In this document: positions 5,950 through 61,311 of the stretch, in pieces | How positions within the stretch are numbered: the stretch's first letter is position 1 | Layout of the letters: each line of letters opens with the position of its first letter | Source: Candidatus Binatia bacterium | Lineage (GTDB): Bacteria; Desulfobacterota; Binatia; UBA9968; CAXXLF01 | Reading direction: 5' to 3' | DNA: 64,000 nucleotides | Assembly (NCBI GenBank): GCA_963664015.2 | Contig: CAXXLF010000001.1 | Location: 768,001 to 832,000 of the forward strand | The notes under the pieces: model-generated | What the model saw: only the letters and a program-made list of their open reading frames with translations | Databases searched by the model: none | What the model was told of the DNA's origin: nothing | Made by a program: the position numbers and the translations under genes

Positions 5950-6072
5950 CGTAATTGTCTAGATCAATCTTCGGGGGGATTAACATCCTGCAAGTTAAGG
6001 GATAGAATTTAAAAAAAGGGCATTGTGAGAACCGAAGGCGAACGCCCGGCTAAGAGGACCAAAGAAGGAGAG

Positions 6073-7383: not shown

Positions 7384-7415
7384 GACTTTATCAAACACAC
7401 CTTAAGGAAGAAACA

Positions 7416-8642: not shown

Positions 8643-8678
8643 ACCGGCGCAAGAGAAACTACAGCGAGGAGAACGAGT

Positions 8679-10136: not shown

Positions 10137-10152
10137 AAAAAAGGAGTCACCC

Positions 10153-45384: not shown

Positions 45385-45771
45385 GCAAGGGAGCCTAACC
45401 CAACCAGGCCTTCACAACCTAGCGAAACTTTGTCCTGGAATTGAAAAGTCGGATTTGGGTGGATAAGGGAAAAGTCATGCATGGCACTTCACCAAGACGA
45501 ATGCAGCGCATGGCCGATCCGGTCCTCGTCTCCATGGTCCGGGCCAAGGGGCTTGATAAAGTACCGTCGCAGAGTAACCGCCCGCCCAGAATCAACGAGC
45601 ATAATCAAACCTGGGTGAGAAAAAGGAACGCTTGGGATTTTTACAGCAGAAAAACTAAGCCCAGAGGTTCACACCTGGTCCGCTTATTCACACCTAGCCG
45701 CGAGCCGCAAATTAATTTGTAACAATATCCATTTAAAAGGACAATCAGCACTCGGATTGTGGATACTCTCG

Positions 45772-46569
45772 TTACTGATTTTGTCGCGTACGAACAGGTT
45801 TTCCAGCCCGAATGTCGTCGGCAAACTTCTTAGCCGCTTCAAAAAAAGCAACGCCGACGGGTCCATATTGGGCCCGGGGCCGGTCCAGTTCCTCCACATT
45901 GAAGCCTAATGTCCCATGGGTAACTCCGATGTTACCGCTACAGTCGTCACCGGATCCGAAACCGCTGACGGTAGGAATAGCCACCTCTTCCGTGATCCGT
46001 TTCGCCAGATCCGGAGGGACCCGGGTGAGAAGCAGGGAGAAGGCCCCCGCTGCAACCAAAGACCTGGCATCATTCCAGACCTTTTCTTCCGGCACCCCTG
46101 CTCCCTCGGAACGGTACCCACCGGACCCCATGGATGTCTGGGGCGTTAAACCCATATGGGCCATAACCGGAATGCCGGCCTTAACGACAGCCTCCACGGT
46201 GGACGCATACTCGGCTCCGACCTCCAGCTTCACCGCCTGAGCCTCTCCCTCCGCAATCAGACGACCCGCATTGCGTATGGCTTCTTCTTTGCTGATTTGG
46301 TAGGACATAAACGGCATGTCGCCTATCACCAAGGCACGCTTCGCCCCCCGACTGACAGACCGCGTCATCAGGACCATCTCATCCATTGTAACCGAGTTGT
46401 TGTCCTCATGGCCCAGGAGGTTTCTCCCACCGCTATCCCCGACAAGGATCATCTCCACTTCGGCACGATCGATAAGACGAGCCATTGAATAATCATAGGC
46501 TGTCATAACCACAATTTTTTTCTTCTCGCTTTTCATCCGGTTTAAATCCGGGATCGTTACTCTTGCCAT
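45772..46569 (-). CDS. panB: PanB-like (ketopantoate hydroxymethyltransferase fold) protein, atypical active site
   Basis: MTAYDY, ILVGDS, VTMDEM, GDMPFMSY, AVKLE, AHMGLTPQ. Confidence 0.8.
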   Translation of the reverse strand: MARVTIPDLNRMKSEKKKIVVMTAYDYSMARLIDRAEVEMILVGDSGGRNLLGHEDNNSVTMDEMVLMTRSVSRGAKRALVIGDMPFMSYQISKEEAIRNAGRLIAEGEAQAVKLEVGAEYASTVEAVVKAGIPVMAHMGLTPQTSMGSGGYRSEGAGVPEEKVWNDARSLVAAGAFSLLLTRVPPDLAKRITEEVAIPTVSGFGSGDDCSGNIGVTHGTLGFNVEELDRPRAQYGPVGVAFFEAAKKFADDIRAGKPVRTRQNQ

Positions 46570-46598
46570 AATCACCTCACTTATAAATTGACTGATTT

Positions 46599-47567
46599 TT
46601 ATCGGTCGCCGTTTTCCAGTTCCCAATAGCCGAGGCCCATTCCCATGACCCCGCTGTAAAAGGGCTCATAGGTGAGGACCTTCGCCGGCACGGTCCCCAT
46701 TGCTCCCATAAGGATGATCCAGCTTCTCATCTCGATATCACCGTGATCGAGCAGATCCTTTGACGTCAGCTGGGCAAGCTTCTCACCTTCGCCCTGAGCC
46801 ATATGGGAAATGGCCTTGCGGTCAAAGTCCTCACTAATGGATCCTAATCCATATGGTCCTTCATAATGGGACCAGGGATAACCGGCTGTAAAGTGGGAAA
46901 GCCCTCCCGACGCATAAATTGCGATTCGCTCGCCGGAAGGCCGGCTTTCGATAACCTCTCTAATGGCACGACCAAGCCGGTAGCAACGCCCCGGACTCGC
47001 TGCCGGCACATGAATCGCATTGACAAAGAGAAGGATTACAGGGATATCCGCCTCGGGCAGCATCATCCGCAAGATCGGGGCATGGGCGTGGGATATTAAC
47101 TCAGAATTGGGAAAAGATTTACAGTAGGACATATCGAACTCACGGTCGATAAAACCGTTGAGAAGGCTTCCCGCTAGGTCCGTGTTGCACCGATATCTGG
47201 ACCCTCGCGTCCTTACACCATCCAGCCCGCGTTCGGTAGAAAAGAACTCCTCTCCCGTATAAATCGCAAACTGCGGCACATTCTGTTCCGTGAAATGCTC
47301 GTCTTGATCGTCCCCAATAAGAATCAATGCATCCGGACGCTTCTCTTTTAGTTTTTGTTTCAACATCTCGAACCCTGAGCTGATCCGGCTGTACCGCGCC
47401 TGGGTTTCCTCCAGGCCTTCTTCTGCCACCTTGGGATGGAGGGTGGGTTCCGTCCCATAACGACGCTTATAGTTGGCTCGGGTCCGTTCACGCATTTTAT
47501 CCCAACCCGTCGGATTGACCAAGGCGTAGGCATGTGAAGAAGCCATACCGGCTATGATGTTTCCCAT
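46599..47567 (-). CDS. Class III (LigB-like) extradiol ring-cleavage dioxygenase
   Basis: ASSHA, IGDDQDEHF, SHAH, ASGGLSHF, EMRSWI. Confidence 0.88.
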   Translation of the reverse strand: MGNIIAGMASSHAYALVNPTGWDKMRERTRANYKRRYGTEPTLHPKVAEEGLEETQARYSRISSGFEMLKQKLKEKRPDALILIGDDQDEHFTEQNVPQFAIYTGEEFFSTERGLDGVRTRGSRYRCNTDLAGSLLNGFIDREFDMSYCKSFPNSELISHAHAPILRMMLPEADIPVILLFVNAIHVPAASPGRCYRLGRAIREVIESRPSGERIAIYASGGLSHFTAGYPWSHYEGPYGLGSISEDFDRKAISHMAQGEGEKLAQLTSKDLLDHGDIEMRSWIILMGAMGTVPAKVLTYEPFYSGVMGMGLGYWELENGDR

Positions 47568-47769
47568 ATGTTATCCTCTCTCTTTCTCATTCAATATCGG
47601 CAACCGGGACCTGGTGCGACATGTAGACTTCCCGCCGCTCCGCCGCAGACTGGAGAATTTCCTGGCACACCTTCATCTCGCATCCATTTCTCGTTGGGCG
47701 TAAACCGCTGCACCTTCTCGGCCATAACCTTCCCCTTCAGTCACAACATTGGAATTATTGGTGAGAACT

Positions 47770-48648
47770 CTACCAGAATCGCCTCCGATAGGTATCGATA
47801 AGGACCTCGTCCGGTTTCTCAGTGAAGAATTCAATCAATGTCCGATTGAATACGTCCGCTTGCTCGAACTGGGGCCAGTGTGCCGCCTTATTCACCATGA
47901 CAAACCGCGAACCAGGCACCGTCTGGTGAACCTTCTCGGCCACGTGCCAGGGGCAGGTCGGGTTGTGGGTCGTCCAGAAGAACAGGATGGGGGCCTTCAG
48001 TTTCGGGATCTTTTCGATCAGACCGTAGGATTTTCTTCCCGCCGCGGCGCTTCCTCCACTGGCCTCCTGCTTTGGCCGGGAGTAAATTTTCAGTCGCACT
48101 TCCACCAATTCGTCCGGTAAAGTTTTTGGATCGTAAAACAACCATTCCATCCGTTTGCGAATGGTTTCCATCGTAGGGTTACCGGTGGCCACTTTGCTCA
48201 GTTCTTGAAACTGCGTAATACCGGCGACGTAACCATGCTCCGCCGATGGGATTCCACCTACGATGAGACCGAGTTTTTCTACCCTTTCAGGATGCTCATG
48301 GGCCATCAGTACGGATATCTGCCCTCCCATGGATTCACCCACCAGATTGGCTTTTTCTATCCCCACCGTGTCTATGAAGCTGATTAAATGCTTACAAAAG
48401 TCGTCCAGATTACGATCCATCCCTTCCGGTAGGTCCGTGTATCCGTGGCCCAGGTAGTCTAGGGCATAAACGTGGAAATGTTCCGAGAGGGGGATGACGT
48501 TGCGCACCCAGGCTTCTGCATGCCCCCCGCCACCATGAAGGAATATCAGTGGGCTTCCACTCCCCTTCTCAAAGCAGCGTGTGCGAATCCCTCCGACGTC
48601 GTAGTATTTCTCCAACGCAGCGAAATCCTCTAATTCTTTAGAAAACAT
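47770..48648 (-). CDS. Alpha/beta hydrolase (meta-cleavage product hydrolase-like)
   Basis: LHGGGGH, GESMGG nucleophile elbow, AAHWPQFEQ. Confidence 0.85.
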   Translation of the reverse strand: MFSKELEDFAALEKYYDVGGIRTRCFEKGSGSPLIFLHGGGGHAEAWVRNVIPLSEHFHVYALDYLGHGYTDLPEGMDRNLDDFCKHLISFIDTVGIEKANLVGESMGGQISVLMAHEHPERVEKLGLIVGGIPSAEHGYVAGITQFQELSKVATGNPTMETIRKRMEWLFYDPKTLPDELVEVRLKIYSRPKQEASGGSAAAGRKSYGLIEKIPKLKAPILFFWTTHNPTCPWHVAEKVHQTVPGSRFVMVNKAAHWPQFEQADVFNRTLIEFFTEKPDEVLIDTYRRRFW

Positions 48649-48698
48649 GGTTCCTCCTAAATTCATAATTCCTAAGATTTAATCCCCAACCCGACTCG

Positions 48699-50132
48699 TC
48701 ATTTGTCCAACCATTCATCCATCTTCCACTTGTTCAAGGCTTCATTACGCCTTTCCTTGCTAAAAAGATTGACTGGAGGAAAATCCTTAAGGCGTTCGAA
48801 CGGACGGCATCCGTTTATTATGAGACGCTTGTACGGCATAGGCCCCCGATGGGCGCGATCCTCTATCCTGCGAAAGGGATCCAGCAGCCAATCGCTGTGG
48901 ATAACGCTCAGCCGAAGCCCAGTGGTCGGATCAAAACGCGAGCCGACGGCCCAAAGCACATCAAGGGGATCCTCCGGATTGATGTCGTCATCGACGAGAA
49001 TAAACAGACGGCCGGGACCATGAATTTTATCAATCGCCCTCATGATCCGGTCGATATCATCTTCCTTTTCCTGGTGAACAGCGATGACGGTAGCTCCCAT
49101 CTTAACGAGACTGGTCACACGGCGAACTGGAAGCCCCTGCTTATCCAACCGGCTCCATAAGCTGGTCACGGAAGTCATCGGTAACGAGAAAGAGTACGCG
49201 TCACCATGGGGCTTTAACGGAGAGGCACCGAAGAGAATAGGATTCGTCCTATGATACATGGCCTTGACCCGAATAACAGGCTCAGGGATGGAACCATCCA
49301 TATAATAACCGGTCCACTCTCCAAAGGGCCCCTCCGGCCTTTTCTCTATCTCCGGAGGAGGGATCTCCCCCTCGATAGCAACCTCCGAGTGCGCTGAAAT
49401 CGGCAGACCGGTCAGCGGTCCCTCGACGACAGGTATCGGTTCGTTAAGAATAAATCCCGCATAATCGTATTCGGGCACGCGCTTGGGACATCCCGTAGAG
49501 CCCGAGGCGGTAAGAAATATAATCGGCTCTGGTCCCAGGGAAACGGCTACAGGGCATGATTTTCCCGCCTTCCAGTACTTATTGATGATCCCCATCCCGT
49601 CATTACCAGGCTCACAGAAAATGCCCGTGGTGTACCGATCATGGAGTTGAAGACGATAGCTCCCAAGATTGACCCAACCACTCTCGGGATCTTTAACGAT
49701 AACCGCCAAACCCGTACCGATGAAGGGACCTCCATCCAGTTCATGCCAGATTGGAACCGGGATCTTTTTGAGATCGACTGCTGCGCCATTTAGGACGTTC
49801 TCCAACACGGGACCGCTTTCGACCGTCACGGGGGGAATGGGCTTAAAAGCGTCCCACCGTTTTTTGAACTGGTGCATCGCCTCGGCTTCAGGCAACTCGG
49901 GATCCATGCCTATGCCCAGAAGGGACCGTCTCCTCGTACTGCAAACATTTGAAGCCACACGGTAATTGGGAGGATAACCTGCAAACCGATCGAAAAGGAG
50001 AGCCGGCCCGCTTCGTTGAAAGGCCAGTTCTGAAATAACTCCGACTTCGTATTTAAGTTCGGCGCCGCTGATTTTTCGCAGGTCTCCCGTTGCCTCCAGT
50101 TTTTCGAGAAAGGTTCTGAGATCGAGTATCAT
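48699..50132 (-). CDS. UbiD-family decarboxylase (close paralog of 8679-10136)
   Basis: WHELDGGPFIGTGLAVIVKDPESGWVNLGSYRLQ, EGPFGEWTGY. Confidence 0.92.
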   Translation of the reverse strand: MILDLRTFLEKLEATGDLRKISGAELKYEVGVISELAFQRSGPALLFDRFAGYPPNYRVASNVCSTRRRSLLGIGMDPELPEAEAMHQFKKRWDAFKPIPPVTVESGPVLENVLNGAAVDLKKIPVPIWHELDGGPFIGTGLAVIVKDPESGWVNLGSYRLQLHDRYTTGIFCEPGNDGMGIINKYWKAGKSCPVAVSLGPEPIIFLTASGSTGCPKRVPEYDYAGFILNEPIPVVEGPLTGLPISAHSEVAIEGEIPPPEIEKRPEGPFGEWTGYYMDGSIPEPVIRVKAMYHRTNPILFGASPLKPHGDAYSFSLPMTSVTSLWSRLDKQGLPVRRVTSLVKMGATVIAVHQEKEDDIDRIMRAIDKIHGPGRLFILVDDDINPEDPLDVLWAVGSRFDPTTGLRLSVIHSDWLLDPFRRIEDRAHRGPMPYKRLIINGCRPFERLKDFPPVNLFSKERRNEALNKWKMDEWLDK

Positions 50133-50141
50133 TCCACCCCC

Positions 50142-51377
50142 CTATGCCTTCTGACGCCGATCATTCTCTAACGATTTGCAGTAGTCCTTCCAGTCCATGG
50201 TACCCGGGATATACCCCTCCGTTCCGATGACCTCCGGAAAACGATTTGCATCGGATTTTCTTATCACACCCGGCGGCTCACGGCCCTCTTGGACATCCTG
50301 AATCGCCTTCATAAGAATCTTTCGTGAAACCACGATGGGCGCATCTGTGGCTACGAGATGTTCTCCTGTCCTGTCCTGAATCGCCCCCATACCTTCCGTT
50401 GCGTACACATCGTGCATCTGAAAGTTAACACCCATGCCGCTGTAGCTTACCGATTTCATGGATTGCCGATCCTGCAGGTACCGGTTAGCCTTGTTCCGGC
50501 TTGGCCTATAGCCATCGATAATCTGAGAACTCCGTTCACGCACCGCTTCCATGTCTAGAGGCCCTTCTGGATTGATCGTGTAGGTGTATTTCCAGTGGTG
50601 AGTATCGTCGATAGGGACGTGCCAATTGGGGTAACCTCCCGGCACTACGGTAAAGTTAGGTAGGACAAATGTCGCCGCCCGAATATAGGTCTTCCCCGGC
50701 TCCACCTTCCGAATCCTGCAGAATCTAAGACCCACATCTATTAATTCGGCTTCGAAGGTCTCCATTTCCGGAAAGGCCCCTCGGTTACTTAATTCGGATT
50801 GCCCTTCCATGAGATCCCGCTCGCTATAATGCAGGAAGGGGACGTGAAGAAGGTCGATATTCCCTTCATTGCCCTGTAAGTAGCTGCACTCGTGCAGGAG
50901 CTTGTTTACGGCAAAGTGACCTTCCGCAAGTGTTAGAAAATCGTAGTTCGGCAGGAGAGGTGATTTGCCAGGCCCCATGTAGGCAAAGATCACTCCCGCC
51001 CGCTCCTGGCATGGATAGGCGGGATGCCGAATAGCGTCCTTGTGCTCCCCACCACCCGGTTCTCCCGGCTGATCCAGGCATCGGCCTTGAATATCGTAAA
51101 GCCAGCCATGGTAGATACATCGCAATCCGCCATCCTCTACCCGGCCAAAACTCAAATCCGCCCCTCGGTGAGAGCAGTGTATCCCTAGCAATCCGGGACG
51201 ACCCGCATCATCTCGAAACAGGACCAGATCCTCCCCCAGAAGACGGACAGGCAAAGGCGCTCCGCCGGCAGGCAACTCTTCGGAAAGCGCAGCCGGCTGC
51301 CAGTAGCGTCGCATCAGCTCTCCGCACGGAGTCCCCGGCCCAACTCGGGTCAATAAATCATTTTCTTCCTTTGTCAT
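50142..51377 (-). CDS. Rieske oxygenase alpha subunit (phthalate dioxygenase/LigXa-like)
   Basis: CSHRGADL..CIYHGW, EGNIDLLHVPFLH. Confidence 0.92.
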   Translation of the reverse strand: MTKEENDLLTRVGPGTPCGELMRRYWQPAALSEELPAGGAPLPVRLLGEDLVLFRDDAGRPGLLGIHCSHRGADLSFGRVEDGGLRCIYHGWLYDIQGRCLDQPGEPGGGEHKDAIRHPAYPCQERAGVIFAYMGPGKSPLLPNYDFLTLAEGHFAVNKLLHECSYLQGNEGNIDLLHVPFLHYSERDLMEGQSELSNRGAFPEMETFEAELIDVGLRFCRIRKVEPGKTYIRAATFVLPNFTVVPGGYPNWHVPIDDTHHWKYTYTINPEGPLDMEAVRERSSQIIDGYRPSRNKANRYLQDRQSMKSVSYSGMGVNFQMHDVYATEGMGAIQDRTGEHLVATDAPIVVSRKILMKAIQDVQEGREPPGVIRKSDANRFPEVIGTEGYIPGTMDWKDYCKSLENDRRQKA

Positions 51378-51453
51378 TGGCTCATGGATCTCCAGGGTTA
51401 AATAGGTTCAATGCCTACGGTGTGTCCCAACTACCTCCTCCTCCCGGGTTTTT

Positions 51454-52581
51454 TCAAGGTCTTTCTTTAAGGAGTTGCCGGATAGGCGTCAGGTCAATGT
51501 ACTCAGCCGGATTGGCCATCATATAATCGACACCTTTTTGACGCCGGTAGATGGGAAGTCCCTTATCCTTGGAAATATTCTCTCGCATGGAGTTGTTCCA
51601 CCCCCGATGGAGGTCCTGGAAAACAGTTTGACCTTGCCTTGAAAGGAGCCAGTTGACTGCGACCTTGGCCGCGTTGGGGTGCGGTGCCTGGTTCATATAA
51701 CTCACGAGTCCGCTTCTAGGTGATACAAAGGCTCCTTCCTTAAATAAGCCAGGTGGAATCATGGCTATGGGGAGTCCCTGATCGATAGCATCCTCAGTGC
51801 CCCTGGTAAAAAGGGCAAAGGAGTATTTACCGATAGCCAGCCAGTCGAGGACCTGGCGGTCATCCCTGCTGATGGGAATGTCCATCTCGCCGTAGAGCCG
51901 GCGGATAAAGTTGGGCCCTAGGGGGGGGTAATTATAGAAGAAACTGAGGTTTTGTTGCGACGATCCATCGACCAAGGGATCGATACTGATAATCTTACCC
52001 TTCCACTTGGGATTTAACAGGTCGAAGAAAGACTTGAGCTCTTTCGGGTCGACGAGCTTCGTGTTGTACACGATACCACCACCCTGAGGGGTTCCTTCGT
52101 ACATGAGCGTATACTTGCTTTGTTTATCAATATAGTAGTCTTTATGCTGGGACCAGTGATACCGATCGACCACCTCGGGAAGAGCCAGGAGCGGTTTCAG
52201 GGGCGGTACCGCCTTTGCCGTGATCAGGGTTTTAGTCACGTCCGTGGGACTACCGATATAAATGTCCACATTGTAAATCCTTGCACGACGCTCGGCCATT
52301 ATCCGTTGGATACGGACGCTGCCCCGGCCCGCACTTAACGTCGTAACCTTGATATCGGGGTAAGCCTTCTGGAACCCTTGACCAAACATAATACCGATAT
52401 CCGACGCTCCATGGACCACCAGTTTGCCTTATCTCTATGCCGCCTCAACCGTTTCATTCCACCCCGCTTGCTGCGCGAAGGACACTCCGGAGGCGCTGGC
52501 CAACAGGTGGCCAATAAGCCCCAGGGTCAGCAAACCTTTTTCAACGTAAGATCTTCTACCGCACGATCGTTCAGTGATCAT
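51454..52581 (-). pseudogene. ABC solute-binding protein with two nonsense codons near the N-terminus
   Basis: Signal peptide..WNETVEAA*R*GKLVVHG (TAG 52435-52437, TAA 52429-52431); the rest is intact to PHPNAAKVAVNWLLSRQGQ. Confidence 0.82.
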
Positions 52582-52601
52582 AGTTATTTCCTTTCACTTT
52601 G

Positions 52602-54059
52602 CTAATCGAACACGTCCTTCCATTTTTTCAGTATGTTCTCGCGGAACTCGGGACTGTTGGAACATACCGGAGGGAACTCCTTGATCCATTCGTAGGGACG
52701 GCAGGCATTGATGACCAGGTTATGAGCGGTATACGGCTTTCGCCCTTCATCCTTGTTAGGATCTGAGCGATCGTTCGGCGGAACCCGCGGGTCCAGCTGC
52801 CAGACCGCCGTTCCCGGGATCACTTGAACCCCCTGCTCGGGAATGCACCGGCTGGCCATCGCCCACATGACCTCATCGCTGTTGGAAACATCGATATCGT
52901 CATCCACTATGATCCACACCATGTGGCCATTGTACTGATCTCCTCCGGGAAGCAATTCTCGGATGACGTCGTTGACCTGACCAAGATAACTCTGACGTAG
53001 TGCCACCACATTCAAATGAGGCTTGGAAAGCCCGAACACTCGGGTCACTCCCGGTATCCCAGCCTTCTCAAGCCTTGCGATGGCGCGCATATTGTCACCG
53101 CCCAGACTGGCAAAGTACTCACAACCCACGGGCCGAACCGGGGGCGCCCCGAAAATGATCGGGTCGTTACGATGATAAACCGCCTTGACTTCGATGATAG
53201 TCTCCGGACGTCTCCCATGAGCATAGTAGCCAGTCCACTCCCCGAAGGGTCCTTCCGGGACGAGCGCCTCGTTAGGCGACGGGATGAAGCCCTCGATCGC
53301 GATCTCCCCTCCCGCCGGAATGGGAAGGCCGGTAAACTCACCGGTGACAACCGGATAAGGTGAATGGTGCAGATATCCAGCGACTTCGAACTCGGACACA
53401 CCTTCGCTTGCGTAGTGGACGCGGGAACCTGCAAGAGAGGTGAGGATGGGTTCCTGTCCCACCGATACGACGACCGGACACTTCACCCCCCGATCCCAGT
53501 ACTTTCTTCGAATGACGTCGCCGTGCTTGCCATGCTCAATAAAAATCGCGCAGGTGTTGCGATCATAAACCGACACCCGGTAGGCGCCGCAATTAATAAA
53601 AGCCGTGTCCGGGTCCTTTTGAATCACACAGACGCCGGTACCGATATAACGTCCGCCGTCGTTTTCGTGCCACTTGGGCGTAGGAAATTTAAAAAGATCA
53701 ATATCATCTCCCTTGAGTACGTTCTCCATCACGGGACCCGAAGCCACGGTTTGGGGCGGCACTGGCCGAAAATCGCGCATGATCGCCTCGCTTTTTTCAG
53801 CTAGGGCTTGGGGACCGAGCTCGGGAGGAAGCCCGAAGGCGATGGCGGTCCGTTTGGGGGTATTGTAGACGTTAGAAATGACCCGATACCCCTTGGGATA
53901 ATCTTTGATATCATCGAACAACAAGGCAGGACCGCGTCTCTCGGTCATGAGCTCGGTGATGCCTCCGATATCGTTCTCCCAATGGGCTCCAAGGACCTTT
54001 TTTAGCTCTCCGGCTTCTTCCAATTTCTCCAAAAATTCTCGTAAATTATTCCACAACAT
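52602..54059 (-). CDS. UbiD-family decarboxylase (canonical motifs)
   Basis: NCGAYR, HGKHG, SEFEVAG, EGPFGEWTGY, VDDDID. Confidence 0.92.
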   Translation of the reverse strand: MLWNNLREFLEKLEEAGELKKVLGAHWENDIGGITELMTERRGPALLFDDIKDYPKGYRVISNVYNTPKRTAIAFGLPPELGPQALAEKSEAIMRDFRPVPPQTVASGPVMENVLKGDDIDLFKFPTPKWHENDGGRYIGTGVCVIQKDPDTAFINCGAYRVSVYDRNTCAIFIEHGKHGDVIRRKYWDRGVKCPVVVSVGQEPILTSLAGSRVHYASEGVSEFEVAGYLHHSPYPVVTGEFTGLPIPAGGEIAIEGFIPSPNEALVPEGPFGEWTGYYAHGRRPETIIEVKAVYHRNDPIIFGAPPVRPVGCEYFASLGGDNMRAIARLEKAGIPGVTRVFGLSKPHLNVVALRQSYLGQVNDVIRELLPGGDQYNGHMVWIIVDDDIDVSNSDEVMWAMASRCIPEQGVQVIPGTAVWQLDPRVPPNDRSDPNKDEGRKPYTAHNLVINACRPYEWIKEFPPVCSNSPEFRENILKKWKDVFD

Positions 54060-54120
54060 ATAAGACCTTCCTTCAATTGGTTTTCCACCCCATTATTAGC
54101 AACTGATTCTGCCCCCTCCC

Positions 54121-55419
54121 TTATCGAGCCGACTTGGTATGCCACCCCTGCCCCTCGGCGGCCAGCTCTTCGCAGTACTTTTTCCATCCCGTGGACTCGG
54201 GCAGTACACCATAGGTGGCGACGATCTGCGGGAAACGGTTCAACTCGGGGTCGCGGACCACGTGAGGCGGGTCCTTGCCCTCTTGTACGGAATTCATAGC
54301 CTGTTGAAGAACCTTACGGCAGGCTACAATCGGCATGTCTGTCGTGACCAGATTCTCTTTGGTCCTGTCTTGAACAGCGCCAGCTCCTTCAATCACACAG
54401 GTATCCTGAGCTGCAAAAAACTTCGGGTATATACCGCTATAGATCGTGGTTTTCATGGCCTCCCGATCCTGCTGGTATCGGTTATCCTTATTCGCCACCG
54501 GAATGTAGGTAGGAGGCGGTGCCAGCACGTTTCTTTGGTTCTCTCCCCTTCCGATGGCCTTTTCCCTGCTGAAGGCGATAATGTACTTCCAGTGGTGGGT
54601 GTCATCAATGGGGACATGCCAATTCACCCCTCCCCCTGGGATAACGGTCAAATTGGGAAGGATAAAGGTCGCCACTCGGATGTAACTTCGTCCCTCGCCC
54701 ATGACACGAAGCTTACAGACCCTCACTCCAAGATCGAGAACCTGAGCGTCGGTCGATTCCATACCCGGGTCGGGCCCCCTCCCCGTCAACACCCCGGGAT
54801 TAGCAAAACGGTCCATGACCTGCTGGTACTCTTCCGGGTTCAACCGCTCTAGATCCTTTTTAACGAAATGGACAAAGTTGTTGTGGATCAGATCAATATT
54901 GCCCTCGTTGCCTTGCAGGAAGTTGCATTCCGAGTATAGCTTGTGCACCGTTCGATGATCGTCCGGGACGTTGAAAAATTCGTAGTTGGGGAGCAGCGGC
55001 GGCTCGCTCGGCCCCATATAGGCAAAGATTATACCTCCCTTTTCCTCGCAAGGGTAAGCGGGTTGCCGGATCGCGTCCTTATGCTCCCCGCCTCCTGGCT
55101 CACCGGGCTGATCCAGACATCGACCGTGGATGTCGTAAAGCCAACCGTGATAGATACACCTCAGTCCGCCATCCTCCACCCGGCCGTAACTCAAATCCGC
55201 GCCGCGGTGCGAACAGTGTATCCCTAGCAACCCGGGTCGTCCCTCATCGTCACGAAACAGGACCAGGTCCTCTCCGAGAAGCCGGACAGGCAAGGGAGCT
55301 CCTCCCACGGGCAACTCCTCCGAGAGCCCGGCCGGTTGCCAGTAGCGCCGCATCAACTCTCCACAAGGTGTCTCCCGTCCAATCTGAGTGAGCAGATCGT
55401 TTTCTTCTTTGGTTATCAC
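54121..55419 (-). CDS. Rieske oxygenase alpha subunit (phthalate dioxygenase/LigXa-like)
   Basis: CSHRGADL..CIYHGW, EGNIDLIHNNFVH, AQD. Confidence 0.92.
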   Translation of the reverse strand: MITKEENDLLTQIGRETPCGELMRRYWQPAGLSEELPVGGAPLPVRLLGEDLVLFRDDEGRPGLLGIHCSHRGADLSYGRVEDGGLRCIYHGWLYDIHGRCLDQPGEPGGGEHKDAIRQPAYPCEEKGGIIFAYMGPSEPPLLPNYEFFNVPDDHRTVHKLYSECNFLQGNEGNIDLIHNNFVHFVKKDLERLNPEEYQQVMDRFANPGVLTGRGPDPGMESTDAQVLDLGVRVCKLRVMGEGRSYIRVATFILPNLTVIPGGGVNWHVPIDDTHHWKYIIAFSREKAIGRGENQRNVLAPPPTYIPVANKDNRYQQDREAMKTTIYSGIYPKFFAAQDTCVIEGAGAVQDRTKENLVTTDMPIVACRKVLQQAMNSVQEGKDPPHVVRDPELNRFPQIVATYGVLPESTGWKKYCEELAAEGQGWHTKSAR

Positions 55420-55927
55420 TTCACGTCACCTCCTATGAATCCTCCACGGTCTCACGCCCGTGGTATCCTTCCTTATCTTTGGCGTCATCCGCCGAAGCAC
55501 CTACCTTTGCCAAGGCTACGGTCGGTTCGTCCATCGCATCGTCCATGGGCTTATCCCCAGGTTTTTCTGCGAAGGCGAAAAGATGCGGCCTGGACAGGGG
55601 GCCGTAACTGCGAACCAGTACCGGACCATACCAATCGGCGTTGCCCCGAGCCAGCAACGTACTGCGATCAATCGCAAAGATTGCTGGCCAACGATTTTAC
55701 GCTTTAAGGTCTCCTCCTACGAAGAACGTTCCCGTCCCCCTCACGACGCTCCGGCTTTACTGTCTAGGACCAGGAGGTAATCTGGAGGTCAACTCAGGTG
55801 TGGCCCTTTTAGTAAAAGGCTCAATAATTGTCAACTCAATCACAGCAGGCTGGTTGGGAAAAATCCGGTCAGAATCCCGCCCTTAAGCCCACTCAGCAAC
55901 TCGGGTCAATCGGCAGGAAACCCAGGA

Positions 55928-56641: not shown

Positions 56642-56903
56642 CTTGTTGAACCTTCTCCAATCTACGCTTTAGTTTCCGACTGTAACAATGCGACCAAGAC
56701 TACCCATATTCGTGGTCTCAATCAAGCATAGCCAAGGCTGTGAAGATGTTCCGATATTGCTTGGAGAGGGTCCCTCAGACAGGAATGGCCTACTTGCGAT
56801 ATTTCCTGTGCTACAGCGGAAAACGAGGCAGCGATACACGGAAGAAGAGCTATCAACAAAAGCTCAGCACCGTTTGCTATCGCCTGACAATTAAACATCT
56901 TTC

Positions 56904-57041: not shown

Positions 57042-57118
57042 GAATACACTTGTTAAATTGTACGGATTTATGTTAGATGACCACAGGCAAAAAAACTTGG
57101 GCAAATTTGGAGATTTCG

Positions 57119-58213
57119 ATGCGTTACAAAATATCACTATCATGGGTCTTGAGCGTCTTAATTATGGTATTTGCAATGATACCAGAGCTAGTCCTCGGAG
57201 CTGGCAAATGGGATCAAGTCAAGAAATTGGCTCGTCAAGAGGGTAAGGTCGTACTAGGGACAAACATAGGCTTACCTAAATTTCGCCAGGATCTAACCAA
57301 AGCCGTTAAGAAGCGATATGGCATTACAGTAGAGCTTCGCAATATGAAGTCAGGCGCACTCTCACAGATAGTAGACAGGGAAGGCGCTGCCGGCAAACCT
57401 AGCATGGATGTATTGATGGGCGGTAACAGCGAGGTCATGACCGTCTACCCCAAGGGCCGCCTTTCTCCGGTATTGCCGAAGTTGTTGATGCCTGAGGTAA
57501 TTGATACCAAGCTTTGGCGAGATGGAAGGCTTAAATTTACGGACCCCGAGGAAAAGTACCTGTTGCAGACGGGAGCCTATTTGTCACCCGCGGGTATCTA
57601 TAATACGGACCTTGTAAAGGCTGGGGATCTTAAGTCCGTTCAGGGCCTATTGAATCCCAAATTTAAGGGCAAGATCGCAAGCTTTGATCCACGTCGTGGG
57701 GGAGCGGGGCGCGGAGCAGCTGCCTATTTTTTGTTAAAACTAGGCCCTGATTTTATTACTACACTCTTCAAGGGGCAGAATGTCACCTACACCTCGAACC
57801 ATCGCCAACTGGCGGATTGGATTGCACGGGGAGTTTATGCCATCGGTATCGCTTCACCCTCTAGGGCCTATCTGCCTCTAAAACGTGAGGGCCTGCCTGT
57901 TACCGAGCTCGCCTTCGATGATTTGCTTGACAAAATGTCTGGTGGCAGCAGTGTGCTAAAGTTGGTCAAGGGGGCTCCCCACCCAAATGCTGCAGTCGTC
58001 CTGCTCAACTATATTGCTTCGAAGGAGGGACAGCTAATCTTTGAAAAGTACGTAATACAGAAAAGCCGACGACTAGACGTAATAAACCCTGAAATGCCGA
58101 AATCATTTATTCCAAAAGCAGGCATGAAATACCACGACACGTACTCGTTCCAGTACTACACTAGGGACCGTAAAGCGGGCCAAAGGCGGGTGAAAAAACT
58201 GCTAAAGAGGTAA
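57119..58213 (+). CDS. ABC transporter extracellular solute-binding protein
   Basis: Signal peptide, WDQVKKLARQEG, LLNPKFKGKI, APHPNAA..SKEGQ. Confidence 0.9.
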   Translation: MRYKISLSWVLSVLIMVFAMIPELVLGAGKWDQVKKLARQEGKVVLGTNIGLPKFRQDLTKAVKKRYGITVELRNMKSGALSQIVDREGAAGKPSMDVLMGGNSEVMTVYPKGRLSPVLPKLLMPEVIDTKLWRDGRLKFTDPEEKYLLQTGAYLSPAGIYNTDLVKAGDLKSVQGLLNPKFKGKIASFDPRRGGAGRGAAAYFLLKLGPDFITTLFKGQNVTYTSNHRQLADWIARGVYAIGIASPSRAYLPLKREGLPVTELAFDDLLDKMSGGSSVLKLVKGAPHPNAAVVLLNYIASKEGQLIFEKYVIQKSRRLDVINPEMPKSFIPKAGMKYHDTYSFQYYTRDRKAGQRRVKKLLKR

Positions 58214-58368
58214 TCTCAGCGCGCCAAGACGTTTGAGCCTACCAGCCACGCCCGTGGAGCAACAAATCTAGACTTTATGGTGTCGCTCCTTACTAGGATG
58301 GGCTCATGGAAATTTAATGGATTGATCAATCAATCTATATTTTAGGAAGGTTTTAATTAGAATCGTCG

Positions 58369-58402
58369 AGCAAAAGGGAGAGCCGGTCTTCTCCCTTTTG
58401 CT
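58369..58402. terminator. 13-bp perfect hairpin between SBP and ATPase genes (terminator/mRNA-stabilising)
   Basis: AGCAAAAGGGAGA-gccggtct-TCTCCCTTTTGCT. Confidence 0.65.
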
Positions 58403-58471
58403 AACTCTATGGGGTATGCGCCTACGGCAAGCCTGTGTGGGCCTAATAATCAATTCTAGGCAGGTGTCTAA

Positions 58472-59599
58472 ATGGATAAAACTTTTGCTAAATCCGAAAA
58501 CCCGCTTCTCAGCGTTAGAGGCCTGAACAAGTTCTATGATTCCGTTCAGGTGTTAAAGGACGTCAACTTTGACGTATATGAGAATGAAATTCTGGTCATC
58601 TTGGGTCCTAGCGGCTGCGGTAAAAGCACGACCCTGAGGGTAATATCCGGACTAGAACGACCGGAGGCGGCGAAAATTCAACTTAACGGAAGGATCATCT
58701 CGGATTCTGAAAAATGGATATTTTTACCGGCCGAAAAGCGGAACTTGGGAATGGTTTTTCAGGCCTATGCAGTATGGCCACATATGACGGTGGAAGAACA
58801 TGTCGCATTTCCCTTAATAGTCAGACGAAGCTCAAAGGCGGATATTGGGCCTAAAGTCAAACATATGTTGCAGTTTGTCGACCTTCAAGGATTTGAAAAA
58901 CGAAATGCCAGCAAGCTTAGTGGCGGACAGCAGCAGCGATTGGCCCTGGCGCGTGCACTGGTTTATGAGCCGGATTTACTTCTTTTGGATGAACCACTGA
59001 GCAATCTGGATGCCCAACTGCGGCAAATGATGCGAGTCGAGCTAAAAGATTTACAACAAAGATTGGGTACGAGCTTCATCTTTGTAACTCACGATCAAAC
59101 CGAGGCAATGACATTGGCTGATCGAATTATGCTGATGAAGGATGGACAGATCCAGCAACTCGGGACACCCGATGAGTTGTATCAAAATCCTGTGAACCAA
59201 TTCGTGCATTCATTCTTAGGTAAGACGATCTCTTTTGAAGGTCAGTGGGCAAAAGATGGAAGCCATGAATTCATCGAATTAGCGGGTGGCTATAAACTTC
59301 GAGCCGACAACGGGGGAGCAGCCCTTTCATCAAAGGCTTATCATCCAGAACAGGGAGCTCCAGTTCAGATAACCGTGAGGCCGCAACACCTCAAAATAAT
59401 TACTGAAGAGCGAAAACCACAGATGGACGAGATTGAAGCGGTAGTCGAAAACGTTATGAATTTGGGCGATCAATACGAAATTGCTTTAAAAGCCTGTGAT
59501 AAACAATTCGTGCTTACCGTCAGTGAACTGGTATCGAAGGCAGGCGATAAAATTTTATTAAGACTTGAAGCAGAGCAGGTCAAGGTATGGCTTTCATGA
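58472..59599 (+). CDS. ABC transporter ATP-binding protein (FbpC/PotA-like)
   Basis: GPSGCGKS, LSGGQQQR, LLLLDEP, VTHDQ. Confidence 0.95.
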   Translation: MDKTFAKSENPLLSVRGLNKFYDSVQVLKDVNFDVYENEILVILGPSGCGKSTTLRVISGLERPEAAKIQLNGRIISDSEKWIFLPAEKRNLGMVFQAYAVWPHMTVEEHVAFPLIVRRSSKADIGPKVKHMLQFVDLQGFEKRNASKLSGGQQQRLALARALVYEPDLLLLDEPLSNLDAQLRQMMRVELKDLQQRLGTSFIFVTHDQTEAMTLADRIMLMKDGQIQQLGTPDELYQNPVNQFVHSFLGKTISFEGQWAKDGSHEFIELAGGYKLRADNGGAALSSKAYHPEQGAPVQITVRPQHLKIITEERKPQMDEIEAVVENVMNLGDQYEIALKACDKQFVLTVSELVSKAGDKILLRLEAEQVKVWLS

Positions 59600-61311
59600 C
59601 GGAATCAGACCTGCAGGGCCAGTCCAAAGTCTTGCCGGAATCGCGATTGTCGCGACACCCATTTCTAGGAATAAGCTTGCTTGTTCTACTGGGAGCCGCC
59701 TCGGCTAGTGTGCCACCGGTGGCGTTTATTCTCTTAAACGCCTTTAACAGTGCTGATCCCGGGGAGGCCTTCAAGTTTGGGTTTAGTGGATGGGATAGAG
59801 CCTTTAACAATGAAAACACCATGAGCTCTATCGGCTATAGCTTCCTTCTCAACATTCGAACCTTTATCGGAATCGCCTTCGCCTTTTTATTTTCCTGGTT
59901 GCTTATCCGAGTTCGCATTCCCTGCAAGGGTTTTATTGAATTTTCGCTTTGGATCGCATATTTCTTGCCCTCTCTGCCGCTTGCCATAAGCTGGATCCTG
60001 CTCTTGGATCCTAATTACGGGATTTTGAATCAATGGTTTGGAGGTTGGGGTTTTAAACTAACCCCTTACTCAGTTTATGGAATTATATGGGTGCATTTGA
60101 CGGCGAGCACCATACCGGTCATGACCATCCTGCTAGCTCCAGCCTTTAGACAATTGGAGTCTTCATTGGAGGAAGCTGCTCGGGTCTGTGGCGCTGGAAC
60201 CTGGCAAACATTCAGACATGTGCTAATTCCCGTCCTAGGACCAGCTTTGTTCACCGTATGGTTGGCAGGGATGATTCGTGGGTTGGAGTCCTTCCAGGTG
60301 GAGCTTCTGCTGGGACAGCCAATAGGAGTTGATGTGTTTGCGACTCGAATTTATGATCTCATTTCCTGGGAGCCCCCCGAGTTCGCCCAGGCGATTACGC
60401 TGAGCACATTTTTCCTCGCGATCTTGTTCATTCTGGCCATGCTTTACCAGTCCTATACGAAGGACCGCCGTTACGTAACGGTGTCCGGTAAGGGCACTAA
60501 CTTCCGCCCCATGGATCTTGGCTTCATGAGATATGTCATTTCTGCCGCCATGATAGTTTTCATTGCGTTTGCCGTGTTCCTCCCAATGGGGGCTTTGGTT
60601 TTGGGTTCTAGTATGAGGATATTTGGATATTTTGAGATATCTAATCCCTATACATTGGCTCACTGGAAGGCTGTATTTGAGGATCCGGTCTTCATCACCT
60701 CGACATGGAATTCCATAATTTTAGGACTTTCTACCGGGGTCGTGGCCTTACTCGTGTACTGCCTCCTGGGCTATGCGCTGATTCGGTTGCCTTTGCAAGG
60801 AAAAACTTTGTCTAATATTTTTATATGGCTCCCATGGGCGGTTCCCGGAATTATAATGAGTCTGGGAATGTTATGGATGTTCCTATCGGTGCCTTTTCTG
60901 TCGCCCTTGTACGGTACAATCTTTAGCTTGATTTGGGTCTTGATTATCAAGGAGCTCCCAATTGGTGTCCATCTGATCAAGACGAGTTTCACGCAGCTTT
61001 CGGAAGACCTGGAGCAAGTTGCTAGGGTGTGCGGTTCCAGGTGGTGGTACGCTTTTCGCCGGATCACTCTACCACTGATTTCCCCCACGTTGGTCGCTAT
61101 TTTTGTTATTGTTTTTATGGCTTCGATTCGGGATGTGGACAATGTGCTTTTGCTGGCCACCTCGTCGACAAGACCCTTGGCACTCTTAATGATGGAGTAC
61201 GCACTAGGAGGCGAAATGGAATCGGCCTCTATCGTTAGCGTTATTTTAGCTTGTTTTTCCGTCGTTGTAGCTATTTTTGTTCGAAAATACGGATATCGTA
61301 TGCAGTCCTAA
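59596..61311 (+). CDS. ABC transporter permease, fused double domain (FbpB-like)
   Basis: Two EAA loops (LEEAARVCGA, LEQVARVCGS); ATGA overlap with the ATPase gene. Confidence 0.93.
   Translation: MTESDLQGQSKVLPESRLSRHPFLGISLLVLLGAASASVPPVAFILLNAFNSADPGEAFKFGFSGWDRAFNNENTMSSIGYSFLLNIRTFIGIAFAFLFSWLLIRVRIPCKGFIEFSLWIAYFLPSLPLAISWILLLDPNYGILNQWFGGWGFKLTPYSVYGIIWVHLTASTIPVMTILLAPAFRQLESSLEEAARVCGAGTWQTFRHVLIPVLGPALFTVWLAGMIRGLESFQVELLLGQPIGVDVFATRIYDLISWEPPEFAQAITLSTFFLAILFILAMLYQSYTKDRRYVTVSGKGTNFRPMDLGFMRYVISAAMIVFIAFAVFLPMGALVLGSSMRIFGYFEISNPYTLAHWKAVFEDPVFITSTWNSIILGLSTGVVALLVYCLLGYALIRLPLQGKTLSNIFIWLPWAVPGIIMSLGMLWMFLSVPFLSPLYGTIFSLIWVLIIKELPIGVHLIKTSFTQLSEDLEQVARVCGSRWWYAFRRITLPLISPTLVAIFVIVFMASIRDVDNVLLLATSSTRPLALLMMEYALGGEMESASIVSVILACFSVVVAIFVRKYGYRMQS

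Follow-up and report, generated by a model that had tools for sequence, protein, structure and literature searches.

Genes at the locus and their conservation

The window (the whole 64,000-nucleotide stretch of DNA that was analysed) comes from the genome of an uncultured member of the Binatia. According to the list of its open reading frames, positions 45772-55419 are filled by eight minus-strand ORFs. The original prediction had placed eight co-oriented genes of named families here, and Pfam searches find all of them. In gene order, followed by the neighbouring features assigned by Pfam, they are:

54121..55419, minus strand: RieskeA, 432 aa, phthalate-dioxygenase-family Rieske oxygenase alpha subunit (Pfam Rieske and LigXa_C)
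52602..54059, minus strand: UbiDA, 485 aa, PhdA-like UbiD-family (prFMN) decarboxylase with UbiD N, core and C domains
51454..52581, minus strand: solute-binding protein (SBP) pseudogene, weak SBP_bac_1 match (33.6 bits) on 51454-52419
50142..51377, minus strand: RieskeB, 411 aa, second phthalate-dioxygenase-family Rieske oxygenase (Pfam Rieske and LigXa_C)
48699..50132, minus strand: UbiDB, 477 aa, second PhdA-like UbiD decarboxylase (Pfam UbiD domains)
47770..48666, minus strand: Hyd, 298 aa, hydrolase of meta-cleavage-product (C-C) type, alpha/beta fold (Abhydrolase_1)
46599..47567, minus strand: LigB-family protein, 322 aa, fold of the class III extradiol dioxygenases, variant metal site (Pfam LigB)
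45772..46569, minus strand: PanB-like protein, 265 aa from ATG 46569, longest ORF from TTG 46626 (Pantoate_transf)
57077-58213, plus strand: SBP2 of a divergent ABC importer
58472-59599, plus strand: ATPase of the importer
59587-61311, plus strand: fused permease of the importer
6025-7383, plus strand: Rieske gene of a paralogous module
7416-8642, plus strand: Gfo/Idh/MocA dehydrogenase gene of the module
8679-10136, plus strand: UbiD gene of the module

The gaps between the eight genes are, in the same order, 61, 20, 76, 9, 32, 202 and 29 nt, where the 20-nt gap runs to the ATG at which the SBP gene originally began and the 29-nt gap to ATG 46569 of the PanB-like gene, the start used by its orthologues. 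Uptake for the cluster probably runs through the importer at 57077..61311. RieskeA and UbiDB have their closest paralogues (593 and 821 bits, respectively) in the module at 6025..10136. Across the host genome, matches number 52 for UbiD, about 64 for Rieske and about 63 for binding proteins, and three Rieske-MocA-UbiD triads lie elsewhere in it.

In two further families of the order to which the host belongs, orthologues of all seven intact genes lie clustered (62-84% identity), so that the arrangement exceeds chance, although many of the related loci belong to kin and are non-independent. Genome G004 has the order RieskeA-UbiDA-SBP-RieskeB-UbiDB-Rieske-SBP-LigB-PanB-like at 72-84% identity (RieskeA 83%, UbiDA 82%, RieskeB 78%, UbiDB 80%); its cluster contains no hydrolase gene and, like the present one, no dehydrogenase gene. 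In family f3 (genomes G030 and G034) all seven intact genes have their orthologues in one co-oriented cluster, which an SBP2 orthologue (54-55% identity) closes. Here UbiDA orthologues are 68-69% and UbiDB orthologues 62% identical, and the RieskeB orthologue (64%) adjoins that of the LigB-family gene. The f3 clusters also have a Gfo/Idh/MocA dehydrogenase gene after each orthologous Rieske gene, in contrast to the layout shared by the present cluster and G004, and the dehydrogenase behind the RieskeB orthologue is 52-53% identical to that of the paralogous module (7416-8642). A Chloroflexota MAG contains a partial set, in which UbiD (63% identical to UbiDA) and SBP genes diverge from Rieske-PanB-like-LigB-hydrolase-hydrolase-MocA. 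A gene order conserved nowhere else would have refuted the original prediction, and the clustering in these genomes answers that objection. A test for co-duplication of the Rieske-UbiD pairs was not significant (Mantel r 0.256, a value reached by 486 of 5000 permutations).

The SBP gene of the cluster is a pseudogene. Read from ATG 52581, it encodes a signal peptide followed by 'AA*R*GKLVVHG', the in-frame stops TAG (52435-52437) and TAA (52429-52431) separating the signal peptide from the mature part, and a 321-aa ORF from GTG 52419 follows them. In G004 the orthologous gene is unbroken, encodes 381 aa at 77% identity and reads 'AAKKEGKLVVHG' where the stops sit here. This loss raises the question of whether the whole cluster is a decaying remnant, functional in its ancestors and no longer a pathway in the present host. 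Compared with the f3 cluster, the present one lacks the two dehydrogenases, the two bicupins and further genes; several other genes of the window are truncated or split, many SBP paralogues are fragmented and one reductase gene is broken. The seven remaining genes are nonetheless full length against their orthologues (coverage 0.98-1.0), and comparison with near-identical seawater contigs separates them from the SBP ORF: 13 synonymous and 3 non-synonymous changes are listed for the enzyme genes and orf237, as against 2 and 10 among the 12 listed for the SBP ORF, these counts being partial and drawn from 40 of the 93 rows of the difference table. The enzyme genes are thus under purifying selection. 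Moreover, G004 combines the dehydrogenase-free layout with an intact SBP, and the neighbourhood contains further SBP copies and an importer, so decay of the pathway as a whole is an unlikely explanation.

Oxygenases and decarboxylases

Both Rieske proteins match Pfam Rieske (65.1 and 63.2 bits) and LigXa_C (85.9 and 93 bits against a cut-off of 27), a model that may include phthalate dioxygenases. Among solved structures, the three nearest to them are those of phthalate dioxygenase, isophthalate dioxygenase and the homologue ROCH34, and RieskeA aligns end to end with the first two (7fjl, 213.8 bits; 9ina, 206 bits). The motif 'CSHRG...CIYHGW' is present in both, against 'CPHRR...CLYHGW' of 7fjl. 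The mononuclear iron of phthalate dioxygenase is bound by His181, His186 and a carboxylate, with Asp178 as the bridging residue (PMC8649396). RieskeA retains this site and the bridging Asp ('IDLIHNNFVH' for 'IDSAHSSSLH' and 'AQD' for 'NQD' of 7fjl). With pocket roles taken from the same source, the alignment to 7fjl shows that RieskeA keeps Arg231, Phe339 and Arg244, the last being the carboxylate anchor common to phthalate and isophthalate dioxygenases, and that Arg207 is changed to Asn, Ser179 to Leu, Ser182 to Asn, Phe278 to Lys and Phe280 to Ile (PMC8649396). Because the phthalate-specific pocket is only partly kept, RieskeA is, judged from its sequence, a member of the phthalate dioxygenase family and not a phthalate 4,5-dioxygenase.

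Among the closest known systems are the aerobic phthalate and isophthalate pathways of Comamonas, Burkholderia and Pseudomonas, in which phthalate 4,5-dioxygenase is followed by a cis-dihydrodiol dehydrogenase, 4,5-dihydroxyphthalate decarboxylase and 4,5-cleavage of protocatechuate. The kinship of the Rieske proteins and the conserved Arg244 ally the cluster with phthalate and isophthalate pathways, and its relatives reproduce the sequence of a Rieske enzyme, then a Gfo/Idh/MocA dehydrogenase, then a decarboxylase and a LigB-family enzyme. The cluster differs in the altered RieskeA pocket and in its decarboxylases, which are prFMN UbiD enzymes and not of the phthalate-pathway type; in addition, the oxygenase-decarboxylase unit is doubled, a PanB-like enzyme is added, and dehydrogenase and reductase are absent. 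Indeed, Pfam finds no oxygenase reductase, ferredoxin or dihydrodiol dehydrogenase gene in the cluster. A search of the genome for reductases of the Fer2-FAD-NAD type gave a single clear match, which is a broken gene, and searches of G002 and G030 found no PF00175 match.

The original prediction looked instead to the degradation of the biphenyl lignin dimer DDVA, which in Sphingobium sp. SYK-6 involves LigXa, LigZ, LigY and LigW. At the level of enzyme families, the cluster resembles it in four kinds of step: a Rieske oxygenase of LigXa_C type, ring cleavage by a LigB-family enzyme, C-C hydrolysis and non-oxidative decarboxylation. The hydrolase of the cluster has an alpha/beta fold and its decarboxylases are UbiDs, not amidohydrolases. 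Extended to methoxylated lignin-type compounds, this analogy would have LigXa- or VanA-like Rieske enzymes remove methyl groups, with the formaldehyde C1 unit captured by the PanB-like protein ahead of decarboxylation. The PanB fold performs C1 transfer to a 2-oxoacid, both Rieske proteins exceed the LigXa_C cut-off by far, and neither this cluster nor that of G004 has a dehydrogenase. Against this, the nearest solved structures are of the phthalate type with the carboxylate-binding Arg244 retained, and Gfo/Idh/MocA genes stand beside the Rieske genes in family f3 and at the Chloroflexota locus. The PanB-like gene, moreover, keeps company with LigB-family genes more often than with Rieske genes (within 7 kb at 14 and 11 of 19 loci, respectively), an Eremiobacterota locus (L075) pairs PanB-like and LigB without any Rieske gene, and the PanB-like protein has lost Glu181. 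Because each Rieske gene of the f3 relatives is followed by a Gfo/Idh/MocA gene, a logic of dihydroxylation, dehydrogenation and decarboxylation is favoured over O-demethylation, which needs no dihydrodiol dehydrogenase; the LigXa analogy is the weaker of the two, and the funnel for methoxylated compounds as a whole is improbable.

UbiDA and UbiDB exceed the Pfam cut-offs for UbiD_N, UbiD and UbiD_C. Their best solved relative is PhdA from Mycobacterium fortuitum (7PDA), matched over the full length at 355 bits by UbiDA and at 315.9 bits by UbiDB, whereas the next best solved UbiD scores 159 and 143 bits, respectively; scores of 316-355 bits denote a relative and not an orthologue. UbiDA contains 'GAYR' and UbiDB 'GSYR', sharing the 'GxYR' pattern with PhdA, and both contain 'EGPFGEWTGY', a letter-for-letter match to PhdA; in UbiDB, 'GSYR' also aligns with identical letters. 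These letters correspond to the catalytic Arg and the Glu-x4-Glu motif, with roles as in Fdc1. A single UbiX gene (NF004685, 268.6 bits against a cut-off of 188) lies outside the cluster at L102:551-1183.

The substrates given for PhdA are phenazine-1-carboxylate and a quinoxaline carboxylate (PMC10850782). By extension, the cluster might serve carboxylated N-heteroaromatics or polycyclics (phenazine-, quinoline- or naphthoate-type acids) in place of benzene polycarboxylates, with the UbiDs acting first as in PhdA. RidA-like genes recur in related islands and, like the kinship to PhdA, would fit such substrates. The cluster itself, however, has no RidA-like or deaminase gene, its Rieske proteins resemble benzene-dicarboxylate dioxygenases, and one characterised member cannot define a family present in 52 copies, which makes these substrates unlikely.

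Candidate ring-cleavage enzymes and the PanB-like protein

The LigB-family protein reaches 96 bits with Pfam LigB (cut-off 26.3), and its scores against LigB beta and DesB are 56 and 50 bits. In LigB the iron ligands are His12, His61 and Glu242, and the catalytic residue is His195. His12 is present, and His225 and Glu279 are equivalent to His195 and Glu242; Gln88 replaces the iron ligand His61 of LigB (His59 of DesB). All 34 of 34 orthologues aligned have this Gln, and paralogues have His, Gln or Thr at the position. The LigB orthologues bear generic names only. Since the second iron ligand is replaced by Gln, the protein's activity as a dioxygenase is uncertain.

Hyd (Abhydrolase_1, 104.5 bits) contains 'GESMGG' and 'AAHWPQ', which correspond to the GxSxG nucleophile and the His-Trp after the catalytic His. 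All 18 of its 18 best solved relatives are meta-cleavage-product hydrolases, led by CumD, HsaD, BphD and MhpC at 85-103 bits, and it falls below every NCBIfam equivalog cut-off (110.4 against 400 bits for HsaD and 93.8 against 462 for BphD). Orthologues of 64-77% identity occur near LigB-family genes in 10 of 40 relatives.

The PanB-like protein matches Pantoate_transf (285.4 bits, Pfam) and passes both the panB equivalog TIGR00222 (233.4 against 207.55) and the subfamily NF001452 (283.4 against 272). Fold and family are shared with PanB of E. coli (1M3U), M. tuberculosis (1OY0) and N. meningitidis (1O66) at 150-178 bits, and D45, S46, D84, K112, E114 and H136 (E. coli numbering) are kept. On these grounds it could be a second ketopantoate hydroxymethyltransferase, with its Mg and oxoacid residues in place, that lies downstream by chance and outside aromatic catabolism. 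The genome, however, has three PanB-family members, of which a canonical copy scoring 400 bits sits in panB-panC-panD elsewhere. In alignments to the three structures, Thr stands at Glu181, the presumed catalytic residue of PanB; this Thr is found at 17 of 17 loci of the clade, as against Glu at 14 of 14 ordinary panB loci, and is rare in the family (7 of the 150 best library representatives). Gly at Leu47 and loss of the Asp of 'HD' are further marks of the clade, and 'GIGAG' reads 'SGFGSG'. Unlike panB in its pan operon, the gene stands beside LigB-family genes: these occur at 15 of 18 clade loci and 0 of 14 ordinary panB loci, loci that are partly kin, and adjoin orthologues 57-86% identical in MAGs titled Binatia, Chloroflexota and Eremiobacterota. 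By sequence and gene context, the PanB-like protein is a paralogue from a rare clade and not the housekeeping PanB, and a second role in making ketopantoate is very improbable.

A proposed route for carboxylated aromatics

Collectively, this is a real cluster conserved in evolution, whose uncharacterised enzymes most likely oxidise and decarboxylate carboxylated aromatic rings before opening them; one of these enzymes would be a vitamin-B5 enzyme copy turned to a new use. A catabolic cluster joining Rieske, prFMN-type UbiD, LigB-family, meta-cleavage-type hydrolase and diverged PanB-fold genes had been proposed, and the gene families and their clustering in other genomes support it. The proposal had gone further, to a complete and undescribed pathway. 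The second term stands, in that a full-text literature search found no published pathway with such a gene set, and the enzyme subfamilies of the cluster have no characterised member. The first does not: reductase or ferredoxin and dihydrodiol dehydrogenase are absent, Pfam finds no hydratase or recognised aldolase gene in the cluster, and the SBP is broken.

From the gene families and their order in relatives, we infer the following substrate class and sequence of steps. Uptake of an aromatic di- or polycarboxylate would fall to a periplasmic binding protein together with the ABC importer next to the cluster, whose own SBP copy is dead. The two phthalate-dioxygenase-family Rieske oxygenases would hydroxylate the ring, and in the relatives the Gfo/Idh/MocA dehydrogenase after each Rieske gene would re-aromatise the cis-dihydrodiol; in the present host, either dehydrogenation would be supplied from elsewhere or the Rieske enzymes may be monooxygenases. 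The two PhdA-like, prFMN-dependent UbiDs would then strip carboxyl groups from the ring, the role that 4,5-dihydroxyphthalate decarboxylase has in the phthalate pathway, after which the LigB-family enzyme may open the resulting catechol-type compound and the meta-cleavage-type hydrolase may cut the ring-fission product.

The 2-oxo or enol acid so formed would be handled by the PanB-derived, Mg-dependent enzyme, which has lost Glu181 and would make no ketopantoate; its reaction may be that of an aldolase, a hydratase/tautomerase or a decarboxylase. Meta-cleavage pathways include class II, metal-dependent 4-hydroxy-2-oxoacid aldolases such as HpaI and BphI, and a functional analogy with them is possible, since the PanB-like protein would likewise use a divalent metal and bind a 2-oxoacid after ring cleavage and C-C hydrolysis. 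The resemblance would be in working alone, as Pfam and NCBIfam give no sequence match to these aldolases in the cluster. On this preferred reading, to which we assign a probability of roughly 0.6, the cluster would be one of many paralogous clusters with which bacteria of this Binatia order take up and degrade carboxylated aromatics.

Gene order of the cluster and its conservation

Eight co-oriented open reading frames occupy positions 45772-55419 of the window, with intergenic gaps of 9 to 202 nt in the ORF listing, and their Pfam families are those named in the original prediction.

Genes of the cluster and the adjoining reading frame (window coordinates; families of the eight cluster genes from Pfam)
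54121-55419, minus strand: RieskeA, Rieske and LigXa_C domains
52602-54059, minus strand: UbiDA, UbiD with all three domains
51454-52419, minus strand: SBP, weak SBP_bac_1 match
50142-51377, minus strand: RieskeB, Rieske and LigXa_C domains
48699-50132, minus strand: UbiDB, UbiD
47770-48666, minus strand: Hyd, Abhydrolase_1
46599-47567, minus strand: LigB-family, LigB
45772-46626, minus strand: PanB-like, Pantoate_transf
55928-56641, minus strand: orf237, 237 aa, upstream of RieskeA

That layout stands, while the first description needs correcting on three points: the SBP gene is broken, the LigB-family protein has a variant metal site and the PanB-like protein is a paralogue. The accompanying claim of a complete pathway does not hold, since the cluster contains no reductase, ferredoxin, dehydrogenase, or recognised hydratase or aldolase. 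Neither promoter-like sites (7 versus 9.4 +/- 2.6 expected) nor terminator-like sites (13 versus 12.6 +/- 3.8 expected) stood out in a scan of 45300-57100. No RNA data set was listed as carrying the 9.6-kb stretch, a result neutral as to expression. The upstream frame orf237 matches nothing in Pfam or NCBIfam; its Atlas matches are clusters of hypothetical proteins together with a weak, sub-0.9 ferritin/DUF455 lead, and it carries two 'ExxH'-type motifs ('EVKHY' and 'ELKHY'). It was set aside as a cluster member because it is absent from the corresponding cluster of G004, a relative of the same family.

The original prediction was to fall if its gene order recurred nowhere else. This is not the case: orthologues are clustered in G004, in another family (f3) of the same order and, for part of the set, outside the class. 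The G004 cluster reads RieskeA (83% identity), UbiDA (82%), SBP (77%), RieskeB (78%), UbiDB (80%), a further Rieske gene, a further SBP, LigB (72%) and PanB-like (84%), and has no hydrolase gene. The co-oriented f3 cluster, checked in full in G030 and G034 and in part in G024, G036 and G040, comprises in turn UbiDA (68-69%), RieskeA (66-68%), a Gfo/Idh/MocA dehydrogenase gene, PanB-like (62-67%), a bicupin, a hydrolase, a UbiD, a Peripla_BP_6 protein, LigB (63-64%), RieskeB (64%), a second Gfo/Idh/MocA, a second bicupin, UbiDB (62%), Hyd (64-66%) and SBP2 (54-55%), the binding protein of the divergent ABC importer beside the window's cluster. All seven intact cluster genes, together with SBP2, therefore have clustered orthologues in another family. 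Beyond Binatia, a Chloroflexota metagenome-assembled genome (L073) carries a UbiD (63% to UbiDA) and an SBP, divergent from Rieske (54%), PanB-like (58%), LigB (46%), two hydrolases and a Gfo/Idh/MocA. Across 40 relatives, orthologues of LigB (58-73% identity) and of the hydrolase (64-77%) were each found in 10. G004 also holds a 48-kb island of repeated modules (L056-L058; G004:C4:255000-303000), with three copies of a Rieske - RidA-like - Gfo/Idh/MocA unit, four LigB and two PanB-like genes, two class II aldolase-fold genes, an Amidohydro_2, one UbiD, SBPs and ABC permeases; one of its Rieske genes is interrupted by a Mutator-family transposase.

Predicted chemistry of the encoded enzymes

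RieskeA aligns end to end with phthalate dioxygenase PDO-KF1 (7fjl, 213.8 bits), isophthalate dioxygenase (9ina, 206 bits) and ROCH34 (7fhr, 202 bits). By the residue roles given in PMC8649396, its iron ligands and the bridging Asp178 are retained, as are Arg231, Phe339 and Arg244, the last being the carboxylate anchor common to phthalate and isophthalate dioxygenases, whereas the protein is changed at Arg207, Ser179, Ser182, Phe278 and Phe280. Judged from its sequence, RieskeA is an aromatic-carboxylate oxygenase of the phthalate-dioxygenase family, not phthalate dioxygenase itself. The nearest solved relative of UbiDA and UbiDB is PhdA, the phenazine-1-carboxylate decarboxylase (7pda; 355 and 316 bits), by a wide margin over the second-best solved UbiDs (159 and 143 bits), and the three proteins have the 'GxYR' and 'EGPFGEWTGY' motifs in common.

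The best solved relatives of Hyd are CumD, HsaD, BphD and MhpC, and it falls under every NCBIfam equivalog cut-off. The LigB-family protein is only distantly related to LigB beta (56 bits) and DesB (50 bits); counterparts of His12, His195 and Glu242 are retained, but it has Gln88 at the second iron-ligand position, where LigB beta and DesB have an iron ligand. All 34 aligned orthologues have Gln88, Asp87 and Glu90; paralogues have His, Gln or Thr at the ligand position. Among the paralogues of the window's genome (G000) and the loci L056-L075, most LigB-family proteins read 'D-Q-x-E' as opposed to the canonical 'D-H', and a few have His or Thr. Metagenomic orthologue clusters of this protein number more than 120, every one generically named.

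The best-supported reading of these assignments is the logic of the phthalate pathway carried out with UbiD decarboxylases. A phthalate-family Rieske enzyme would oxygenate the ring, a dehydrogenase would follow (relatives encode one, as do three Rieske-MocA-UbiD triads at other places in G000), and a prFMN-dependent enzyme would then decarboxylate the product. A second round of oxygenation, dehydrogenation and decarboxylation may precede ring opening by the LigB-family enzyme, C-C hydrolysis and a putative PanB-derived step on a 2-oxo or enol acid. The original prediction had also allowed for O-demethylation by the Rieske enzymes, a version of the pathway that is the weaker of the two because dehydrogenases accompany the orthologous Rieske genes. 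As a described counterpart, the riboflavin/lumichrome (lum) pathway was rejected: it has Rieske and extradiol steps, but the text describing it does not contain the word UbiD (PMC12746152). A PDR/BenC-type reductase was likewise discarded as electron donor of the approximately 64 Rieske proteins, since the sole clear Fer2-FAD-NAD (BenC-type) reductase gene of G000 (C2:482933-484007) is interrupted by an in-frame TAA as well as a frameshift, and PF00175 (NAD_binding_1) was not found in G002, a same-family relative, or in G030.

A PanB-like clade beside ring-cleavage genes

The PanB-like protein scores above the NCBI panB equivalog cut-off, yet G000 encodes three members of the family, of which the 400-bit copy lies in a panB-panC-panD operon. 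A housekeeping role is rejected on account of this canonical copy and of the distinct clade to which the window protein belongs. Aligned to PanB of E. coli, M. tuberculosis and N. meningitidis, it retains D45, S46, D84, K112, E114 and H136, but differs from them in having Thr in place of Glu181 and Gly in place of Leu47, an altered 'GIGAG' and an 'HD' motif lacking its Asp. We take Glu181 to be the catalytic residue of PanB.

When PanB-family loci were gathered with an alignment of the clade, Thr occupied the Glu181 position in 17 of 17 clade members (57-86% identical; an 18th locus, cut short, lies outside this count), as against Glu in all 14 ordinary PanBs (54% identical or less). A LigB-family gene is present at 15 of the 18 clade loci versus none of the 14 ordinary ones. 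Within 7 kb of the PanB-like gene, at 19 loci including the window, LigB and SBP genes each occur at 14, UbiD and Rieske genes each at 11, and MocA genes at 8. In a library of 1.84 billion representatives, the best 150 matches have Glu at this residue in 129 cases and Thr in 7. The family is itself expanded in G002 (seven copies) and G004 (six), several of them adjoining LigB paralogues. Loss of a general base would fit a substrate that is an enol on arrival, as ring-fission products are. Literature searches found no paper on Glu181 in KPHMT and nothing relevant on PanB-like or PanB-homologue proteins.

The fold of 4,5-dihydroxyphthalate decarboxylase is NMT1/THI5-like. An NMT1/THI5-like protein is encoded near PanB-like genes at 7 of the 19 loci, and in the Eremiobacterota locus L075 such a protein of approximately 323 aa (31.6 bits; 4978-5949 and 16593-17567) is encoded directly 3' of LigB-family genes.

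Decay, expansion and significance

Translation of the SBP gene from the ATG at 52581, 20 nt past the stop of UbiDA, gives a signal peptide and then meets an in-frame TAG and TAA ('AA*R*GKLVVHG'), where the intact 381-aa orthologue of G004 reads 'AAKKEGKLVVHG'. An 11.3-kb stretch around the cluster (window 45500-56800) has exact copies in contigs from two studies, either possibly the source, and is approximately 99% identical in two seawater metagenomes. One such seawater contig spans the stop site with 20 differences, and as none of the 19 listed falls at the stop codons, at least one SBP stop is shared. Among the differences listed (40 table rows, with 53 others outside the counts), those in the SBP frame are 2 synonymous and 10 non-synonymous, and those in the enzyme genes and orf237 are 13 and 3. 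Such counts would be expected if the SBP gene is dead and purifying selection still acts on the enzyme genes next to it. Loss of the SBP, absence of the dehydrogenases and damage to other genes lend modest weight to the view that the whole cluster is a decaying remnant, against which stands the mostly synonymous variation of the enzyme genes among the differences listed.

Split or truncated genes are also seen at window 28056-29089, 14579-15358, 18063-19016 and 44941-45384 (a two-piece UbiD, an AMP-binding enzyme without its first two thirds, a Pyr_redox_2 from profile position 130 and a methyltransferase fragment), and many SBP paralogues elsewhere in G000 are in two or three pieces. A second island, at window 625-13131, has on one strand SBP, an unknown protein of 355 aa, UbiD and SBP, and on the opposite strand Rieske, Gfo/Idh/MocA and two UbiDs, followed by a convergent UbiD.

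In the 3.51-Mb genome (two contigs; the window is C1:768001-832000) the UbiD core domain is matched 52 times, and two split genes account for four of these matches. A phmmer survey of its reading frames gave 64 Rieske, 63 SBP, 52 UbiD, 14 LigB, 12 hydrolase and 3 PanB matches; within 2.5 kb, a Rieske gene accompanies 12 of the UbiD matches, an SBP gene 10 and either of them 18. All eight sampled genomes of the order have from 26 to at least 41 UbiD matches, whereas at E <= 1e-20 no match turned up in 52 of the 53 genomes taken from other orders of the class, and a single one in the remaining genome; the expansion is order-specific. Searches of the literature found no paper linking Binatia or Binatota with UbiD, and those on Binatota aromatic dioxygenases and SAR202 UbiD nothing relevant to the cluster. 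Co-duplication of Rieske and UbiD genes was not significant across 11 pairs (Mantel r 0.256, a value attained in 486 of 5000 permutations), their association appearing at subfamily level only, in 5 pairs.

UbiX is encoded once in G000 (268.6 bits against a cut-off of 188), between genes for a CTP-dependent-riboflavin-kinase-like protein and a type 2 isopentenyl-diphosphate isomerase (L102:2-1626; G000:C2:1279800-1281600), in what looks like a prFMN-supply operon for about 50 UbiD genes. The approximately 63 SBP matches far outnumber the 13-17 fused permeases of matching type (from 21 hits overall), which leaves many SBPs lacking a dedicated permease. The bicupin family has 43 matches.

The component families and the overall logic are known; new are the combination of PhdA-like UbiDs with phthalate-type oxygenases, occurring twice within one cluster, the Gln88 LigB subfamily and a Thr181 clade of PanB-like proteins linked to ring cleavage. 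We put at roughly one in four the chance of a broader claim, namely that this clade is the first with another function among proteins of the ketopantoate-hydroxymethyltransferase fold and that the order has a modular system for mineralising carboxyl-rich aromatics. The former would be an Mg-dependent enzyme working with variant-site LigB-family enzymes on aromatic ring-fission products. The latter, acting in seawater and soils on, for example, benzene polycarboxylic acids, would draw on a UbiD complement of some 26 to over 41 matches in each genome (G000 has about 50), here apparently with a single UbiX, together with about 60 phthalate-type Rieske oxygenases and about 60 binding proteins, many of which lack a dedicated permease.

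UbiD enzymes are in demand as catalysts of reversible (de)carboxylation and, to our knowledge, few of their substrates have been established; the UbiDs of this order are a large, untapped and probably substrate-diverse set. The intact SBP orthologues offer a direct experimental way to the substrate. The automatic panB label is wrong for a gene set tied to ring cleavage, and the PanB-like clade points to an unrecognised enzyme activity. UbiDs repeatedly occur together with phthalate-type oxygenases, dehydrogenases and binding proteins, which suggests a way in which uncultured bacteria attack carboxyl-rich aromatic organic matter.
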